Shown here: positions 1-43,662 of the stretch, piece after piece | Layout of the letters: each line of letters starts with the position of its first letter | Numbering within the stretch: the first letter of the stretch is position 1 | Program-made: the position numbers and the translations under genes | NCBI GenBank assembly: GCA_001275005.1 | Contig: JWZX01002781.1 | Span: 1 to 43,662 of the forward strand | From: Chrysochromulina tobinii | Lineage: Eukaryota | Direction: 5' to 3' | DNA: 43,662 nucleotides | Notes under the pieces: generated by a model | What the model saw: the letters and a program-made list of their open reading frames with translations, nothing else | Told to the model about the DNA's origin: nothing | Database searches by the model: none

Positions 1-21
1 TCCCCCCTGGCCGGGCTCCTG

Positions 22-1608
22 ATGGCTCCGCTGTCTGTCTCTTCACGCGGTGGTTCACGGCCGCTTAACCGTTGGGGTCAAGCGGCAGAGTTTTGCGGTG
101 AAGAGTCCTGTTTGCGTGACAGGGTGAATTTCATTTATAGAGAGGTTTCGCACGTCGCGAACGCGTGTCTCCAGGCACGCATGTACCCCAGCCCAGGGGC
201 GCTCGTTGCCATGGGCGATGGTGGCGCTGCTCACATTCACGCTGGCGAGCTTATTGTTCAAAATGCATCGCACGCGCGGATCCCTTGGTTGCAACAAGGG
301 TCGCCATTCATGATTTCGACAAGCTCGTCTTCTCCACTTCTTCGACTGCGCACCCCTGGCATTTCACATGTCAACGTAATCCGCGTCCCAGTAAGCACGC
401 CGAATGGCATGCGCAACCCGTTTCATAGTGCTTTTGAAGTTCTCGATCGGCAGCTGGACGCGTTCCCACGTGGAGTGGATCTGCATGCTCTCAAGGCCAA
501 TGCTGCGCCACAAGGCATCGTAGACCTGCACGCCCTCAAGTGCGAAGAGCTTGCGGCGCAAAGCGTGACTTTAGGGGCAGAGTTGGATAGAAATGCGAAC
601 AGCAGTGCCATTCTCTTTCCGCACCGACGGCGCTCCATCCACGCACTCTTCGATCCCTCGCGCGTGGAGAAACCGCCAAGCGTACCACGAACGGGGAACG
701 CCGCTCCCTTCCCGAAGCCACTCCGTGTGCCATACAAGTCCAAGCCGAGGCAGCGGGCAGATATTGCCGATGCCCCGGCGGCAGATATTGCCGATGCCAC
801 GGCGGCGACCTTGGAGCTGACGGGCGCGCAGGCGCGTGTCGGATTTGTGGCGTTGCCAGGGGCAAGCCCACCTCGCTATGGCCGCCCAGCATTCAGGAGC
901 GTGGCGCGCCCTCCCTCGGTGCCTGAGCCTGCGAACGTCCTCGAGGAGGCCCGCGTGGAGGACGAGCCGTCGAGCTTGAGTTCTTCTTTCAAGCGCCATT
1001 CGCTGCCTACGAGGTCATCACCGGGTGCATCACCACAGAGCGCCACTGCCGCCGTCGCCGCCGCCACTGCCGCTACCGCCGCCGCCACCGCCACCATCGC
1101 TGCCACCCTTACGGCAGGACGGCCGACGGACCTCGATTTTCACACCATGGTTCACGGCGCGCCCGCGACCAAAGACGGAAGAGGCGTTGCACGACTCAAC
1201 GTCAAGGAATTCTTCCTCGGCGAGACCATCGTCAACATTCGAGGGTCTCTCTCTTCTTTGGCCAAGTTCCCCACTCGCCACGAGATCATGACGTATCATG
1301 GCCCCGAGGTCACGGGCCCGAGACCATCGCTTGCGCCGCGAGCGCCGCGAGCGCCAACGGCTGCCAACGCGGTGCCCTATGGTGGCCAAGGGCGAGAACA
1401 GCGAAAGGAGGTACGAAGAAGGCAGCTCATGGCCTCGCACAAGGGCAAAGCGGATGCAGGAGCCATCGCAATGGCACGCCAGCGCGCTCAGGATGCCTTA
1501 GCCGCCGCCACTGGGAAAGGCAAGTACACTGATGAGCAACTCTTCGCCGCTGCAGAGAAGCACCTCAAAAAGCTCATGCTGAGGTCTGGCGAGGACTGGG
1601 TCGAGTAA
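22..1608 (+). CDS. Hypothetical protein, Pro/Ala-rich with a charged helical C-terminus; true start uncertain, possibly a downstream Met
   Basis: 528-codon ORF followed by an AT-richer 3' region; short internal repeats VDLHALK x2 and ADIADA x2; no family recognised. Confidence 0.55.
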   Translation: MAPLSVSSRGGSRPLNRWGQAAEFCGEESCLRDRVNFIYREVSHVANACLQARMYPSPGALVAMGDGGAAHIHAGELIVQNASHARIPWLQQGSPFMISTSSSSPLLRLRTPGISHVNVIRVPVSTPNGMRNPFHSAFEVLDRQLDAFPRGVDLHALKANAAPQGIVDLHALKCEELAAQSVTLGAELDRNANSSAILFPHRRRSIHALFDPSRVEKPPSVPRTGNAAPFPKPLRVPYKSKPRQRADIADAPAADIADATAATLELTGAQARVGFVALPGASPPRYGRPAFRSVARPPSVPEPANVLEEARVEDEPSSLSSSFKRHSLPTRSSPGASPQSATAAVAAATAATAAATATIAATLTAGRPTDLDFHTMVHGAPATKDGRGVARLNVKEFFLGETIVNIRGSLSSLAKFPTRHEIMTYHGPEVTGPRPSLAPRAPRAPTAANAVPYGGQGREQRKEVRRRQLMASHKGKADAGAIAMARQRAQDALAAATGKGKYTDEQLFAAAEKHLKKLMLRSGEDWVE

Positions 1609-3231: not shown

Positions 3232-3586
3232 TCAACACTCCCCCAGCATCATCGCCGCCACAATCTGCTTGGCGGCCGGATCCGTGAGCGTGGCCACCAG
3301 CTGCCCGAACTGCGCCTCGCCCAGCGCCGTCCCGAGCGTGCGCACCCAATGCGCCACGCGTACGGGTACGTTGATCGACCTCAGGTCCTCATCGTCCTCG
3401 TCGTCCTCGTCGTCCTCCTCGTCCTCCTCGTCCTCGCCGTCGTCCTCGTCCTCCTCGCCGCCTCCGCCGAGCGCGCCGGTGTCGGCGTAGGCTCGCGCCG
3501 CGGTGGTGGCGGCAAACTCCTCTTGGCTCATGAAGGGCGAAGGACGTCGCGCGCCTTGCTGAGCGCTCGCCTCGACGCGATCTTCA

Positions 3587-3621
<35 letters not shown>

Positions 3622-4706
3622 ATCCTCGTCCTCGTCCTCGTCACCTGCGTCGCCTTGTCCCCGGACGAGCTGCCCGTCCGCTCGGTACGAGTCCGAGCCC
3701 GCATGCGCCAGCACAGCCCGGGCCGCCGAAGCGGCGAGGGCGAAGACACGAACGAGCAACGGCACTACCGGCCTCGCGCCGTGTTGAGCAGAGGATGGTG
3801 CCTGGCGCTCGCGCCGTGTTGAGCTGCGCAGCTGGCGGGGTGCGTGCGGATCTGCGGGCGGTGCGGCGCTGGGCACTGGCAGCTGGCACACCGCCGGGAA
3901 CGCAGGCGAGGCGAGCTCGAGCAGCGCAGCAAGGAGAGCCTTCGCCTCATATGGATGGAGCACCTGATGAGGGAGGCTATCGGAGGCACTCAGTGGCACT
4001 CGGAGGCACTCGGTGGCACGTAGAGGCACTCCGCGGCACTCAGAGGCACTCCGAGGAAATCGGTTCGCGTACATCCGGCGCCGTCTCAATCCAAGCACTG
4101 AGCACGAGCGACAACGCGCCGTCATGGGCACCCTCATGGGCGCCCTCGTGGGCGCCGAGCCGTTGGAGCGCATCGACGAGCATTCCACAGCCGAGAGGGG
4201 GCGGCGCGAGCGCTATCCTGGCGAGGACGACTAGAATGGCATGGCGCAGGCCCATGCGCGATGCCGACCGCAGCCATCGCACGAGCGCCCACAACAGCGC
4301 GTCGGCACGCTCGGCGAAGGCGCTCGGGGCGTGACGAACGAGGACGCCGAGTAACGGCACGCCACCGCTCGCCACCGCCGCCTCGGTGAGCTCGCCTCGG
4401 AGATTGCGGAGCGCCGTGTCGAGCCAGTGCATGCGGAGCGTCGTGCCGTCAGCCAGCGCGCCGTGTCGTGCAAAGTAGCCGAGGCACAAGCAGCCCTCGC
4501 GCAATACGGATGGCTGCGTCGCGTGGCTCACGACGGTTAACAGTGCGGGCAGCACTTCGGTGCATGCCGCCCGAGGCAACGCGTGAGTTCGGGGCCAGCG
4601 GCGGAGCAGCACGGTGTGTAGCAGCTCGAGAGCGGGCATGAGGGCTTCGTGGGAACTTGCATTCACATCGTCCCCCACCGTCCCCATATCATGCGACCCA
4701 TCCTCA

Positions 4707-4774
<68 letters not shown>

Positions 4775-7552
4775 TCCGGCCGCAGCGTGCATCCCTCCGG
4801 CAGCACTCACCGCCCCGCCGGCTGCCGCGTCCGCTGCGGCCGCCGCCTGGTCGAGTTGCATCTGGAGCTGCGGCACGTGAAGGAGCCATCAGTCGCACTC
4901 AGTCGCAATCAGTCGCACTCAGTCGCACTCAGTCGCACTCACCTGGAGCACGTGGAGGAGCACGGGAAGCAGGCGCTCCACCAGCCCAGGCATGGCCTCG
5001 AGCTGCGAGGCCATCGGCTTGATCGCATCCACCACCGCGTCACCCACAAGGGGGGATGTGCCCGAGACGGCGCCGCGCCCGAGCGAGTTGGACCAGAGCT
5101 GTAACAGCTGCGGCGTGAGCCACGGCTCCGCGGCGGCCGCCGCGTGAGCGTCGCGGCGCAGCAGACTCCCCACAGTGCGCAGGGCGCATAGCGTCGCCTC
5201 TTCGCCCTCTCGCAGCGCGAGGAGCGCCGTCGTGGGCACCAAACAGTCCAGCACGAGCGCCGTAGTGGTCGCCGCGCCCCCTGGCAGACGTTCACACCCC
5301 TCTGGAAGCTGTTCACACACCGTCTGGAGCGCGCCTGCATGGACCGCAATCAGGCGCACTCAGACGCACTCGGAGGCACCCGTCGAACGCAATCAGAGGT
5401 CATCAGAGGCCATCAGAGGTCCTCAGAGGCGATCAGTCGCAATCAGAGCCCATCAGCGCACCGCACGCGACCAGGCGCAGCTGAGTGCCCCACTGTGGCT
5501 CTAGTGCCGCGCGGATTGCTCCCACCAACTTAGCCAACGCCTCTCGCGGCAGCGAAGCCGCATAGCGCGCCGCCGCGCACAGGGTTCGTGCCCGGAGCAG
5601 CGGAGGCGTGTCGGGGTTCGTCAGATCGTGTCCCCACAGCTCCTCGAACGCATGTGCGGCGCTGAAGACGGCGGCGCGCCCGTTGGAGAGAGCCTTTTTG
5701 TTCGCCTGCGCCAAGTGGGACGCACCAAGCTCGAGTGCGAGGCAGGCAGCCTCTCGCAGCCGCCACCAGTGCGGCGCACCCGCTGTTCGGTTCGCATGCG
5801 CTTGGCTCAAGCGTGCGCCGATGGCGTGCAGGAGCGCCGTCGCGGCGCTCGCCGGGGCGGCGTCGAGCAGCTGCTCGAGCGCTTGGCGCACCTGCCATTA
5901 GGCGCAATCAGGCGTAATCAGGCGCAATCAGGCGTAATCAGGCGCAATCAGGCGCATGCAGACTCATACAGCAGCATTCATCTAGGGCGCTCGATGTCAT
6001 CAAAGGTCATCAGAGGGTCATCGTAGAATTCATCAGAGGTCTTCACGGCGCAATCCACACCAATCAGGGGAGCTGCTCACGGCCACGCGAGTGGAGACGG
6101 CGAATGACTCCGAGTCCTCATGTTGAAGGTACGCGTCCACATCTTCGCTCCACTCCTCCTCTTGTGCAGGCGTGATCGGGAGCAGCCCAATGCACCTGCA
6201 TGCAAACGCATGCCAACGCATCCTCAGACGCAATCCAGACGCAATCAGATGGGCTCAAGACGCCCTCAGACGCCCTCAGACGCCTTCAGAAGCACTCAGA
6301 CGCCCTCACAAGCACTCAGAAGCACGCAGAAGCACTCAGAAGCACTCAGATGCACATGTGGAAGAGGTCGGGCAATGCCGGCGTGAGTAGCCTGTGGAAC
6401 GTCGATGAATCCGCAAGCGCACTGAACACGTCGAGTAGCTCCGCCGCCAGAGCATCCGCGCCCTCCGTCTCTCCGTCCGAATCGTACCGCGACGGCGCGT
6501 TCCAAAGGCCCATCGCGCCGCCAGGCTCCGTCGCCTCGAGCGTGCGCTCATGCAGCCGGACGGCTCGCAGCAGCTGTGCGCCGAGCGGAGGCAATATGGC
6601 TTCCTTATTAGGCAGGAGCGCACGTGGGAGCATCTGGATGAAGAGTCGCAACAGGCGAACGAGCGCCACCTGCAGCGCGCAGCTCTCACCGTCCGCACCC
6701 TCTGCGCCCGCCACAGCGCCCGCCACGCCCGCCACGCCCGCGACGCCCGCCACGCCCGCCGGCGCGTCTGCACAGCCCGCGAGCGCCTCGAGGATGAGTG
6801 ACGCCCACACAGCCAACGGCCCCTTTTGGAGCTTGCGCAGGACCGGGTCGTCGTCGGCGCAGAGCATGGTGAGCCGTTCGAGCAGCTTATGCACCACCTG
6901 ATGAGGGGGGGGGCAGTCCGGTAGGCGCTCACGGGGGCGTTCCAAACACGCCATCAGCGCCCCTCAGTTGCGAGCACACCCGCACGGTACGCGCTCGGTC
7001 CTTGGGCCTTGCCGTTGGCGAGGCGACTACTGGGGCGAGCAGCGGCGAAAGCACATCGAGCGTCTCGATCAGCTGAGCCTGATCAAGCTCGCCGGCGCAG
7101 AGCTCGAGGCAGCGCAGGACGCCTGCGGCTGCCTCCGACGAGCCCTCGCCGCCCGCGCTCGCCGCGCTCTGGAGCCGTTGGATGAGCTCTTGCACCATCC
7201 CAGGCCACTCGTCGGGAAAGTCGTGCTGCGCAATGGCGGCCACGACCATGGAGACGGCGGTGCGGATCTTGCCGGATCGGTCGGCGAGGCACGTGGGCAG
7301 CGCGCCTCGGATCGCCGCCTTCTCTGCGTCAGGTACGATGCCTCGCATCCACTGGGAGCGCACAAGCCGCTTCAGGATCAGGCCGGATAGCTGGCGCACC
7401 GGCAAGGGCTGAGCCGAATCGACAAGGATACTCGCGAGGCAGAGCGCAAATCCGGGTGTGCCCTGCAGCGCGTCGAGCCCAGCCTCGGCCGCACGCGGAT
7501 CGAGCTGCATCTGGCCGAGGTGGTGCAACACCACCGCGTGAAGGTCAGACAT
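3232..7552 (-). CDS. IPO9: Importin-9-like karyopherin, 7 exons: 7552-6980, 6897-6356, 6195-6081, 5891-5462, 5334-4943, 4867-4073, 3963-3232 (about 1192 aa)
   Basis: IBN_N-like VRQLSGLILKRLVRSQW; AIAQHDFPDEWPGMV; EEEWSEDVDAYLQHED; WWRLREAACLAL; acidic C-terminal loop; all six GT-AG junctions keep frame (3579 nt). Confidence 0.85.
3964..4072 (-). other. Importin-9 intron 6 (109 nt, phase 0) with GAGTGCC-core decamers
   Basis: GAT|GTACGC ... CCCTCATCAG|GTG joins ETAPD to VLHPYEAK. Confidence 0.8.
4868..4942 (-). other. Importin-9 intron 5 (75 nt, phase 0), GAGTGCGACT x5; alternative in-frame acceptor at 4862
   Basis: CAG|GTGAGT ... GCCGCAG|CTC; its removal eliminates an in-frame stop. Confidence 0.8.
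5335..5461 (-). other. Importin-9 intron 4 (127 nt, phase 1) with degenerate decamer repeats
   Basis: G|GTGCGC ... CATGCAG|GC gives VACGALQTVC. Confidence 0.75.
5892..6080 (-). other. Importin-9 intron 3 (189 nt, phase 0) containing a (TGATT(G/A)CGCC)n decamer array
   Basis: GCC|GTGAGC ... CTAATGGCAG|GTG; CTAAT branch-like motif. Confidence 0.8.
6196..6355 (-). other. Importin-9 intron 2 (160 nt, phase 2), built of about 10-nt TCTGAGTGCT / TCTGAGGGCG units
   Basis: AT|GTGCAT ... GCATGCAG|GTGCATT restores LFHMCIGLL. Confidence 0.8.
6898..6979 (-). other. Importin-9 intron 1 (82 nt, phase 0)
   Basis: CGG|GTGTGC ... CCCCCTCATCAG|GTG joins ARTVR to VVHKLL. Confidence 0.75.
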
Positions 7553-8002: not shown

Positions 8003-10168
8003 TGTGGATGCGATGCTCAAATCGGCGAACATCAAGGGAGACGATACGTTTTTGGACAGCAACGCTCAGGAGCGTGAACGTGGCATTACCATTCTTGCAA
8101 AGAATGCGGCGCTCACATGGAATGGCGTCAAGGTCAACATCGTCGACACTCCTGGCCACGCCGACTTTGGCGGCGAGGTGGAGCGTGTGCTCGGCATGGT
8201 GGACGCCGTGCTGCTGCTTGTGGATGCGGCGGAGGGCCCGAAACCGCAGACGCGCTTCGTGCTCAAAAAGGCGCTTGCCATGGGCCACAAGGTGCTTGTC
8301 GTCGTTAACAAGATCGACAAGCCTGCTGCGCGTCCTGACTACGTGCTCGACAAGACCTTCGACCTCTTCTGCGAGCTGGGCGCTACGGACGAGCAGACCG
8401 ACTTCCCTGTGGTGTACACGTCGGCGATCAACAAGGTCGCTGGCCACGAACCGAATGCGATCGGCACGGACATGTCGGCCCTCTTCGACAAGATCATGAC
8501 GCTCCCGAAACCCAAGGTGGCGAACGACAAGCCTCTCCAGCTCCAGATCTCGAACATCGGCTCGGACCCGTTCATCGGGCGGCTGGGCATCGGACGCATC
8601 ACCGCGGGCAAGCTGGTCAAGAACACGCCCATCGGCCTCTCTGCGGGCCCTGGCGCGAAGGTTCGCCAGGTCAAGGTCTCCGAGCTCTTCAACTTCCAGT
8701 CGGCTGGCCGCGTGCCGATTGAGAGCGCCTCCGCGGGCGAGATTGTCGTCTTCTCGGGCGTGCCCGACTTCAACATCGGTGACACGATCGTCGACCTGGC
8801 CAACCCGATGCCACTCGAGCCCATCGAGGTCGAGCAGCCCACGATGTCGATCACTATGGGTGTGAACAAGTCTCCATTCGCGGGTCGTTCGGGTGCCAAA
8901 TACCTGACGGGGCGCAACATCCGCGATCGGCTGATGAAGGAGCTCGAGACGAACGTGGCGATGCGCGTCGAGGACACCGACGACGGCGATACGGTGCTCG
9001 TCTCTGGGCGTGGGTTGCTCCATTTGACCGTGCTGATCGAGAACATGCGGCGGGAGAGCTTCGAGCTCATGGTTGGCCCTCCGATGGTGATTGAGAAGAC
9101 CGAGAATGGCGAGCGCCTCGAGCCGTTTGAGCTGGTGGGCAGATTGAAGGCAGATTGAAGGCAGATTGAAGGCAGATTGAAGCCAGATTGAAGCCAGATT
9201 GAAGCCAGATTGAAGCCGTTTGAGCCGTTTGGTGGGCAGATTGAAGGCAGATTGAAGGCAGATTGAATGCTGCCTCGAATCTCCTCTGAGGGCCGCGGAG
9301 GGCTGCTGATGGCCACTGATGGCCGCTGAGAGTGCTGCTGTGATTGCTTCGGCAGGTGGACATCGAGCTGCCCGCGGAATACGCCTCGGCCGCGATCTCC
9401 CTGCTCAACGAGCGCAAGGGCAACATGATCGACATGACCGCGGTGACCAAGGAGGGAGGGCAGGTGAAATACTGAACGAGTTGCCCTGAGTGCCCCCTAA
9501 TTGGCCTTAATTAAATGCAATTGCCATACCTGCCTCGACTGCAGGTGATCCAATTCGAGGTGCCTGCCCGTGGCATGTCGGGCGTCAAGTCCAAGCTGCT
9601 CTCTGCGACACGCGGTCTCGCCGTGATGAGCTCCACCTTCGCGGGCTACAAGCCGTACGCGGGTGACTTCGGGCAGCGCCAGAAGGGCAATCTGCTCTCG
9701 GCCGAGGCGGGCACCGCCACCGCGTATGCGATGCACAAGCTCGAGGACCGCGGCGCCTTCTTCTCCAGCCCCGGCGATGAGGTGTACGAGAACCAGATTG
9801 TCGGCGTCAACGCCAAGTCGGGCGATCTCAAGGCAAACATCTGCAGGTGATGAGCACTGATTGCATTCGGATTGCATTCAGATTGCATTCAGATTGCATT
9901 CTGAGTGCCTCTGATTGACTCTTGAGTGGCTCTGAGTGCCTCTGAGTGCCTCTGAGTGCCTCTGAGCGTCTCGCTCATCAGGGCGAAGGCGCTGACGAAC
10001 ATGCGCTCGGCCGGCGCGGATGAAAAGTCGACCACCTCGACCCCGCTGCAACTCACTCTTGAGGATGCAGTCGAGTACGTCATCGACGGCGAGTACGTCG
10101 AGGTGACGCCCGACGCGATCCGCATGGGCATGGCGCCCAAGATGAACAAGTTTGGCCAGAAGGTGTGA
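7818..10168 (+). CDS. typA: TypA/BipA translational GTPase, probably plastid-targeted; exons 7818-9134, 9356-9463, 9545-9846, 9982-10168 (about 637 aa)
   Basis: [81 protein letters not shown]; hydrophobic leader followed by a transit-like segment; junctions keep frame (1914 nt). Confidence 0.95.
9135..9355 (+). other. TypA intron 1 (221 nt, phase 0) with an 11-nt (G/C)CAGATTGAAG array
   Basis: CTG|GTGGGC ... TTCGGCAG|GTG joins LEPFEL to VDIELP. Confidence 0.85.
9464..9544 (+). other. TypA intron 2 (81 nt, phase 0)
   Basis: CAG|GTGAAA ... CTAAT ... CTGCAG|GTG. Confidence 0.85.
9847..9981 (+). other. TypA intron 3 (135 nt, phase 2) with GATTGCATTC(A/G) and CTGAGTGCCT arrays
   Basis: AG|GTGATG ... 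GCTCATCAG|G gives [12 protein letters not shown]. Confidence 0.85.
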
Positions 10169-34566: not shown

Positions 34567-34954
34567 ATGGCTCCGAGTGCGACGACGATAATTCTTGTTG
34601 GAGCGGCTGGCGCGGCTGCGATCTATCTGTTCATCTTGCGCCAGCGGCGACTCGCTATGCTGCCTACGGACGAGGAGCAAGCATGGCTCGACGAGCAGCT
34701 CCGCACTCCGCGCCCGCCCTGCATGTCTCCCGGGAGCCAGGTGTCGGATGAGGAGCAAAAGTGGCTTGACAAGCAAATCCAGAACGTGGAGACGGAGGAC
34801 GTAAGGCTCTGCCCCGCCACTGTAGGTCGGATGCATTCTCAAAACTCCGGTTCGCTTCCCTCGCGCGCAGATGCTGGACGACGCGAGGCAAGCGGCCTAC
34901 GCTCCTGGGGAGGGCAGCAGCCCGAAGAAGCCGCCGTCGAAGAAGGGCCAATGA
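34567..34954 (+). CDS. Small single-pass membrane protein (about 105 aa), exons 34567-34800 and 34871-34954
   Basis: N-terminal hydrophobic anchor followed by RQRR; GAC|GTAAGG ... CGCGCAG|ATG intron (70 nt); duplicated DEEQxWLDxQ motif. Confidence 0.6.
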
Positions 34955-41486: not shown

Positions 41487-43662
41487 TCACTCAAACTGGA
41501 CGCGCGCGTGCAGATGCCGCGCCGCGGCGGCGTCGCCCGGGCGCGCGCCAACGTACCGATGCGCGTACACCATGCGCGGGTGCTGCCGGCGCACGGCGAC
41601 AGCCTGCCCCCCGCCCGCGCCCGTGAGCCGGCGCGGCAGCCAGCGAAGCTCGGGCATCGTATGGTTGGCGGCCGTCGGCTCCCAGAGCGGCGACGCGTCC
41701 CGGTAGGCTCCAAAGCGCGGGTGGACTGTCTGGCCGTAAAAGTCGGAGCCGCGCCGCTTGAGCCACTCGCCCACCGCGTCGCTCAGCCTCGCGCCCACGC
41801 CGAAGCCCTGGAACTCGGGCAGCACGACTGTGCGGTGCGCGCGCTGTGGCCGATCGGTCGCCTCGCTCGTCGGCTTGCCTGAGTGAGGGATGGTCGCCAA
41901 TCAAAGAGGCAATCAATGGTCATCAGCGACGCTCGCAACGGCTTGCCTGAGTGAGGGATGGTCGCCACGAACCCCGCGGGCACGTACACGCTCGCCTCGT
42001 CCTCCGCGTCGTGGCGAGCGTCCTCCGCGTCGCGAGCCACCGCCTCGGCGTCGTGGTGAGCGTCCTCCGCGTCCGCCGCCGCGGTTCCCGCCCGTGTCAC
42101 CGCCGCCTCCGCCCTCCCGCCGAGCGCCACGCGCGCCTCGAGCAGGCAGGTCGATGCGACCGTTGAGAGCTGCGCCGTCTTGTAGTGGTAGCTGTGGAAG
42201 CGCTGCCACTCGGCGGGTGCGCATGGGCGTAGCCGCAGGGCGAGCTGTGGAAAGGGGAGGCGCACGCTGCCGCCGTCGACGAGGCCGGTGGCGCCGGTGC
42301 TGGCGCCGGCGGCGGAGGGTTTGGCGGCGAGAGGGTCGCTGATGACCTTTGATTGCCTCTCGATTGCCTCTTGATTGCCTTTGTTGTCGTCGGAGGGATT
42401 GGCGGCGAGTGACGCTCGCGCGGCCGCCAGCGCTAGCCAACCACGCAAGCCCATCGCCTCGTGAGCCATCGCCTCGTGAGCCGTCGCCTCGTGAGCCGTC
42501 GCCTCGTCCATCGCCTCGTCCATCGCCTCGTGAGCCGTCGCGCCCGCTGCCGCGCCCGCTGCCGCCTTCTCCACGTCCCTCGTCGCCTCCGCCTCGGTTT
42601 CGGCGCCCTCCGCCTCAGCGCCCTCCGCCCGTGTAGCTGCCGTCGGCTGGAGCCAGAAGCACGTGGCCGAGCCCGCCTCAAAGATCCAATCGGGCTCGAG
42701 GGCACCGCGCGCCACGTGCTCAATGTGGCAGCCCGCGAGCACCACCCCGGCGCATCGCAGCAGCGACGGCCGCGCAGCCGCCCCACCAGCGCCCACGACG
42801 GCGCCGCCGGAGCCGCCGGGCTGAGCTTGAGCGGTCGAGGCCCGCAGCGCGCCGCTGAGCGCGCGGCTGATGCGCAGCGTCGTGTCGCCATCCCACGCGG
42901 AGCCAAACTCGTCAAAGAGGGCGAGCCGCGCGCCTGATCGCTCGTCGTCCCCCGCCTCGTCCCCGTCCCCTTTGGCCGGCTCGGCCGCGCCGATCTCCAA
43001 GGCCAGCAGCGCCTGGGCACGCTCGCCGCTCGAGCACGCGCCGTACCGCCACGCGAGCGCCGACGGCAGCGGCGCGGCCACCGCACGCAGGCAGCGCGCC
43101 GCTTGCTCGGAGCTGCCAAAGGCGTCGCTCAGTCGGCGAGCGCGCCGCCAGGCGGCGCTCAAGACGGCGCTCCCGTCGAGGGCGGCTCGACCGAATTGGG
43201 CAGCGAGCAGTGCGGACTTGGCCGCGCCCGACGGGCCGGTCAGCACACCAAGGCGGAAGGGGCCGAGCGCGTCGCGGCTCGGGAAGGGCGGCAGCCGGCG
43301 CGCGCAGGTGCCGTCGCTCGGCAGGTCGAAGAAGGTCTCGACGATGCGCGTCGCCTCGGTCGCCTCGACGTGCGCCGCGAGCACGCGCCCGCCCCGCGGC
43401 GGCGGCGCGCACGCGTCGTGCTGAGCGGGAGGCGTGACGTCGTGGCAGAGGGCATCAGAGACCATCAAAGGCACTCAGGGGTACTACTCAGAAGTCATCA
43501 GTGCTCATCACCTGGAAGGGAGGCGCGTCGTCGTAGCAGCGCTGGGAGAGCACCCGTAGGCCACACCGGCGGAGGCTCGCGAGGAAGAGCTCGCCGCCGC
43601 GGGGGAGGTGCGATGGGGGGAGGTGCGATGGGGGGAGGTGCGATGGCGGGAGGTGCGATGGG
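41487..43662 (-). CDS. ABC-type ATPase fused to a GNAT acetyltransferase, 5' end outside the window; exons >43662-43512, 43420-41947, 41878-41487
   Basis: Walker A-like LTGPSGAAKS, signature-like SSGE, Walker B LFDEFGS, H-loop LAGCH...LEPDWIF; WQRFHSYHY; acetyl-CoA motif RTVVLPEFQGFGVG...TVHP. Confidence 0.8.
41879..41946 (-). other. GC-AG intron (68 nt, phase 1) bounded by a perfect 29-bp direct repeat
   Basis: CAG|GCAAGC ... CCCTCACTCAG|GCAAGC; removal joins the 41783-43474 and 41487-41900 ORFs. Confidence 0.8.
43421..43511 (-). other. GT-AG intron (91 nt, phase 0) in the ABC-GNAT gene
   Basis: CAG|GTGATGAGCACTGAT ... CCCGCTCAG|CAC; upstream frame stays open to the window edge. Confidence 0.7.
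43602..43662 (-). repeat. 15-bp tandem repeat (PSHLP x4), probably coding
   Basis: GGGAGGTGCGATGG(G/C) units on the plus strand. Confidence 0.8.

Follow-up and report, generated by a model that had tools for sequence, protein, structure and literature searches.

The window analysed here, the whole 43,662-nt stretch of a Chrysochromulina tobinii contig, carries on its minus strand an importin-9-like gene (3232..7552). A seven-exon model of this gene (7552-3232) gives a single open frame of 1192 aa, in which an IBN_N domain was detected, and in this model the intron considered below is intron 5, as a preceding sequence-only reading had numbered it. Introns 2-4 and 6 of the gene are crossed by RNA contigs, as are three introns of a neighbouring gene, which we take from its motifs to be TypA-like. 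Intron 5 is predicted at 4868..4942 (minus strand, 75 nt, phase 0, GT..AG), with the ends GTGAGT and GCAG. Because it would place stops in frame if retained, and its removal restores a motif of homologues, intron 5 is presumably spliced. Among the 15 RNA joints listed (of 51) and the listed RNA records, none spans 4942-4868; the spliced X16 record ends at 5168, short of the intron. This missing RNA cover, like that at the flanks of the 41871 insert described below, proves nothing.

The last 19 nt of exon 5 (4943..4961, minus strand), ending in CAG, are the exonic copy of a duplication, and the intronic copy (4868..4886, minus strand) forms the end of the intron and supplies its AG acceptor. 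The two copies differ at positions -4, -5 and -13. Between them lie 56 nt (4887..4942, minus strand), here called the filler, containing the GT donor, five decamers and a branch-like CTGAT. The decamers had been described as five copies of one unit; there are indeed five between the two copies, but four are exact GAGTGCGACT and the fifth (4910-4901) is a variant, GATTGCGACT, after which GATG follows. CTGAT, at 4892-4888 and about 21 nt upstream of the acceptor, is presumably the branch site, judging by the CURAY consensus. The GT..AG ends, the branch-like motif and the restored frame suggest that intron 5 is a U2-type spliceosomal intron.

A second in-frame acceptor is possible after the first 6 nt of exon 6 (4862..4867, minus strand), which encode Leu-Gln; homologues favour the retention of these residues. 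Splicing to 4868 gives a protein with VLQ^LQ at the junction, which aligns without a shift to P0001, P0002, P0008, P0010/P0017 and P0011/P0019; because all five of these homologues continue across the site in the same register, we placed the acceptor there. With a gap in the alignment, an acceptor at 4862 would give 18/19 identical positions and a 6-nt insertion; we rejected this reading because Leu-Gln is retained in homologues, and that acceptor is also disfavoured by its C at -4, found in 0 of the 12 acceptors of the window (P ~0.04). Separately, a tandem duplication of 13 residues, without filler, lies within exon 5 (at about 5090-5050) in P0006 and P0013, which are conspecific alleles.

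Similarity between exon ends and intron ends

On the minus strand, 4961-4943 and 4886-4868 are identical at 16 of 19 positions when anchored on the CAG, exactly as had been noticed from the letters, and the likeness is confined to those 19 nt, since extended alignments give 16/25 and 16/30. The exon 5 end and the intron 5 end are mutual best matches among the 1690 CAG-ending 19-mers of the window. Compared with the intron end, the exon end alone among these exceeds 13/19 (modelled tail probability ~2e-5). It could be argued that the intron is old and that its likeness to the exon end is accidental, the acceptor being an ordinary pyrimidine-rich one, since the finding was picked by eye and several acceptors here are C/T-rich. 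But the other 11 acceptors of the window match the exon 5 end at just 5-9 of 19 positions, so the usual acceptor of the organism does not explain 16/19. On a length-free score, three null pairs out of 61,003, each joining one of the 12 intron ends to an AG site outside introns, had 13 or more, as against 3 of the 12 true exon-intron pairs, which scored 13 (intron 5), 16 (43511-43421) and 21 (41946-41879). The two further long cases in the same window, and the reading through of the site by all five distant homologues that span it, also speak against coincidence, which we regard as very improbable and largely refuted. On these data the copy in intron 5 is real and non-random and is most likely a scar of the intron's birth.

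The excess of such similarity over shuffled pairs that the sequence-only reading had anticipated was found within the window for its 12 introns, including one (34801-34870) that rests on an ORF only: the top score among 132 mismatched exon-intron pairs was 6 (permutation, 151/200,000). When intron 5 and the 41871 case were left out, the acceptor-side permutation over the remaining introns was not significant (19,726/200,000), because one intron alone then carries the signal; that intron, 43511-43421, is strong singly (0/5300 null sites). A long acceptor-side copy is absent in 9 of the 12 introns. Donor-side matches, between the start of an intron and that of the downstream exon, are short but also in general excess, though more weakly so (1,019/200,000 without the 41871 case). 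As to the introns themselves, the genes at 13000-41300 look almost intron-free, and the one candidate intron found there, 34801-34870, lacks decamer filler. The start of importin intron 2 (6355-6336) matches the start of the next exon (6195-6176) at 14 of 20 positions, a level reached at 32 of 4343 null sites; this likeness is possibly a decayed donor-side duplication.

Further duplications with filler and the age of intron 5

Four other loci show a duplication of gene sequence with filler between the copies. At 41871..41967 (minus strand) there is a perfect 29-nt duplication with a 39-nt filler, forming a candidate GC..AG intron of 68 nt (41946-41879); if retained, the insert would shift the frame by 68 nt. 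The intron upstream of it in the same gene, which is ATPase/GNAT-like, is 91 nt long (43421..43511, minus strand; region of the case 43421-43539), and the 28 nt at its end, which follow a 63-nt filler, agree with the end of the upstream exon at 22 of 28 positions. At 42308..42409 a 24-nt duplication (21/24) with a 54-nt filler lies on the plus strand, antisense to the minus-strand gene. It adds 78 nt in frame, is found in 7 of 7 sister ORFs and is read through by a polyA contig, and so is kept in mRNA and protein. The fourth case was found in L003, one of the metagenome loci introduced below. There a 43-nt stretch over the acceptor of importin intron 6, single in the window (3944..3986, minus strand), is duplicated at 43/43 positions with a 16-nt filler (~4010-4115 of L003), giving a possible back-to-back AG|GT site. 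L003 is one assembled contig, and the duplication is seen in one of the three loci that extend to the site, which L001 does not reach. Elsewhere L003 (7954-9009) departs from the window beyond window position 84 (compared with window 1-83) and continues with different sequence, possibly an insertion or rearrangement polymorphism. The common layout suggests that these cases and intron 5 form an age series: L003 (43/43, 16 nt), 41871 (29/29, 39 nt), 42308 (21/24, 54 nt) and 43511-43421 (22/28, 63 nt).

The exon-end copy of the 43511-43421 intron is better preserved in 6 of 7 sister ORFs than in the window, retaining more exon residues there. Mismatches in the two decayed cases are concentrated at -4 to -6 (P 0.07 and 0.009, post hoc), and the changes remove a C at -4, a base that, again post hoc, 0 of 12 acceptors carry at this position. 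Because the differences cluster there and remove this C, part of the apparent decay may, instead of neutral ageing, be tuning of the acceptor or an imperfect copy at birth. The same clustering could mean that the copy never included the last bases, as would be expected if intron 5 were older and its 3' end had acquired the exon-end copy afterwards, by a templated patch or gene conversion, in which case the repeat would be no birth scar. Secondary duplications at splice junctions do exist, namely at the intron-6 acceptor of L003 and as a 16-nt copy in TypA intron 1; but both copy adjacent sequence, and neither transfers an exon end across an intron to its far side, whereas the copy in intron 5 adjoins exon 6 exactly, on the diagonal predicted by a single duplication. 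We therefore consider later capture improbable and keep to duplication at birth. TypA-like intron 1 itself (9135-9355) is built of 11-nt repeats and contains internal copies of its exon end and donor (16 nt exact).

A metagenome scan for exon 5 gave at least 597 stretches, in which at least three loci were confirmed (L001, L002 and L003). L002 is identical to the window; over 2049 exon bases, L001 has 11 differences from it and L003 has 18. Intron 5 is present in all three of these conspecific loci with identical last 19 nt, so the three mismatches of the copy predate the conspecific alleles. The number of decamer units in the three loci is 5, 6 and about 9; the array is still changing among alleles. 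Three close ORFs, P0006, P0007 and P0013, also carry the intron, and no intron-free allele of the same species was found among the three loci and these ORFs.

At 41871 the comparison covered 16 sequences, taken from a cluster of 43 and P0021. All seven sister-lineage ORFs that read through the site (91-92% identity) lack the insert; these ORFs begin within the unspliced upstream intron, and nine shorter cluster members begin just past the site. Since the insert is absent from the seven sister ORFs and intron 5 is in all conspecific loci, the 41871 insert is likely the younger of the two. The proposal that intron 5 is older than that insert thus gained support from the three loci and three close ORFs that carry the one and the seven sister ORFs that lack the other. 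No RNA joint at the 41871 insert was seen in four runs. Three of the four (X15, X16 and X18) contain a 98-nt record that makes one full turn of the 68-nt unit, unspliced and without flanks; it may come from a tandem array in some alleles, from a library artefact such as slippage, or from a full-length intron circle.

A wider comparison drew on nine protein hits, among which P0006 and P0007 are conspecific, P0012 ends before the intron 5 site, and P0009 was excluded from the alignment as repetitive and, in our judgement, spurious. All five distant homologues that span the site (31-46% identical) read through it. The ORF calls ignore introns, as seen in P0006, P0007 and P0013, which end in translated filler. 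Genomic signs are present in three of the five homologues: P0002 comes from a 127,596-nt contig, P0010/P0017 have a 26-aa intron-like insert elsewhere and P0011/P0019 have an intron-like tail. Because ORF calls read into introns, reading through in these three points to absence of the intron from the genome. Within the available sequences, then, the position is not shared with the distant homologues, in keeping with the earlier proposal. Comparison of ORF calls is most simply explained by a lineage-specific gain of intron 5; loss in the distant homologues is possible instead, given their low identity.

The filler family and comparison with known intron gains

A single decamer family accounts for all five fillers; the duplications are 19, 24, 28, 29 and 43 nt long and the fillers 16-63 nt. 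Decamers of this type lie on the sense strand in 11 of the 12 introns of the window and on the antisense strand in none, and the four unit types tested place stops in each of the three sense frames but not in the antisense frames. The intron 5 filler shares 14 nt with intron 4 and at most 9 nt with any of the remaining 10. The filler at 41871 is, at 28/30 positions, an inverted copy of the older filler 396 nt away in the 42308-42409 insert, and at 41917 run X16 has the base of the presumed template; a nearby template for this filler is thus suggested. For the 16-nt filler of L003 the best nearby match is just 9 nt, and a local template is therefore not general. Decamer arrays were sought in viral and prokaryotic collections, where 0, 2 and 2 loci were found, all unrelated. 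By eye, the first and last 9 nt of intron 9847-9981 are near-complementary, a hint of an older element.

That the fillers form one family could also mean that each is a short mobile unit, either an introner or a retro-copied intron RNA, with the 19-nt repeat as a long target-site duplication; this would still be a gain of an intron, though one made by an element and not through repair. In its favour, inserts are found in either orientation, the first 14 nt are identical in two introns separated by 33 kb (9847-9981 and 43511-43421), and in nine other introns the start tends to have a few bases in common with that of the downstream exon, which is the donor-side excess given above. Introners in a Chrysochromulina MAG are moreover described, in the available text, as having 4-bp duplications, carrying the 5' site and co-opting the 3' site (10.1101/2022.06.06.494994). 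In introners generally, as far as the accessible parts of these sources describe them, one splice site is likewise brought in and the other co-opted from the duplicated target (10.1101/2022.06.06.494994; 10.1101/2020.10.14.339549; PMC12130899). But introners as portrayed there have short duplications fixed for each class, 3-8 nt in the published cases (10.1101/2022.06.06.494994; 10.1101/2020.10.14.339549), and copies similar from end to end, and neither was found here. Duplication and filler lengths both vary, the longest stretch that intron 5 shares with any of the 11 other window introns is the 14 nt mentioned, and of the 12 inverted repeats found in 4700-5500 not one brings the two ends of intron 5 together, terminal inverted repeats being a feature of most introner families. 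We thus hold a mobile unit to be unlikely, though less so than later capture; a genome-wide family of introner type, extending beyond the window, is possible.

Better parallels to duplication with filler are offered by Daphnia pulex, where the available text reports 33 cases of intron gain at staggered double-strand breaks with exon-intron repeats of 4-12 bp (PMC4202315). The inserts there are described as AT-rich and mostly of unknown source, the repeats as decaying with age, and presence/absence alleles as occurring (PMC4202315; review PMC3443670). Like these gains, so far as that account goes, intron 5 consists of inserted DNA, and the last bases of the adjacent exon recur, in direct orientation, at the other end of the intron; its exon-end repeat is above chance and, according to ORF calls, it is absent from relatives. 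An intron-free allele is present for the 41871 and L003 inserts and not for intron 5. Unlike the Daphnia cases in the same account, the repeats here are 19-43 nt long, and the filler is a stereotyped decamer array whose fate is set by its orientation.

In the tandem genomic duplication model, as outlined in the accessible text of PMC3443670, an AGGT-containing exon segment is duplicated and supplies the splice sites. Intron 5 resembles this outline in that a duplicated exon segment supplies a splice site and the protein is precisely restored, and the 41871 case, with AG|GC within its repeat, fits it closely. In contrast to the outline, the segment duplicated in intron 5 has no GT, and foreign filler gives the donor and the length; the start of intron 5 does not match the start of the downstream exon, and its two copies are separated by the 56-nt filler.

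Strand-biased 10-11-bp tandem repeats in introns of Emiliania huxleyi were reportedly described by Read et al. 2013 as a compositional feature. The decamer arrays of the window are similar to these in being confined to the sense strand of introns, and different in that the filler would here have a role in seeding introns, beyond composition. Long exon duplications combined with decamer filler in haptophyte introns were not found in the literature searched, which covered few subscription journals; supplements of the introner papers may list such families.

A proposed route of intron birth and its meaning

We favour, with moderate confidence, an origin of intron 5 in one step, by duplication of 19 bases and insertion of filler, probably during repair of a staggered break. 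The layout of the sequence is what points to break repair as the cause of the event. A staggered break filled in on both sides would have duplicated a 19-nt coding segment with CAG at its end, and between the two copies would have been placed a short filler of the genome's 10-base intron-repeat family, copied from an existing array. The filler would supply the GT donor, the branch-like site and the stop codons, the second copy the AG acceptor, and splicing of the new insert would restore the original protein exactly. Later, the filler would have been lengthened by slippage and the intronic copy would have gained three changes, two of which, at -4 and -5, may improve the acceptor. The common layout and filler family suggest that intron 5 and the 41871 insert share this mechanism, as the sequence-only reading had proposed. 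In the opposite orientation, the same event would give a stop-free insert able to remain in the protein, so that among inserts into exons those in sense would survive only if spliced and those in antisense only if in frame.

The source of the sequence of new introns is called an open question in the available text of PMC3443670, where most documented repeat footprints are considered too short against background. The footprints described here are long and mark 3 of the 12 introns of this 44-kb stretch, in stages from allele-specific to fixed and decayed, and the antisense insert at 42308-42409 provides a natural unspliced control. Taken singly, intron 5 is another case of a known kind of intron gain; the value lies in the age series and in a filler whose effect depends on orientation. 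It is likely that this alga makes new introns by duplicating short pieces of genes with repeat DNA between the copies. More tentatively, and with considerable doubt, it may have a standing repair route that seeds introns, in which duplications of 20-40 bases receive splice-competent decamer filler from existing introns, as DNA or as excised intron RNA, the sense orientation giving introns and the antisense orientation peptide; most of its introns would then have been born in this way and would still be arising. A cultured organism with wild relatives would allow the rate of intron birth, the source of the filler and the tuning of acceptors to be measured directly.
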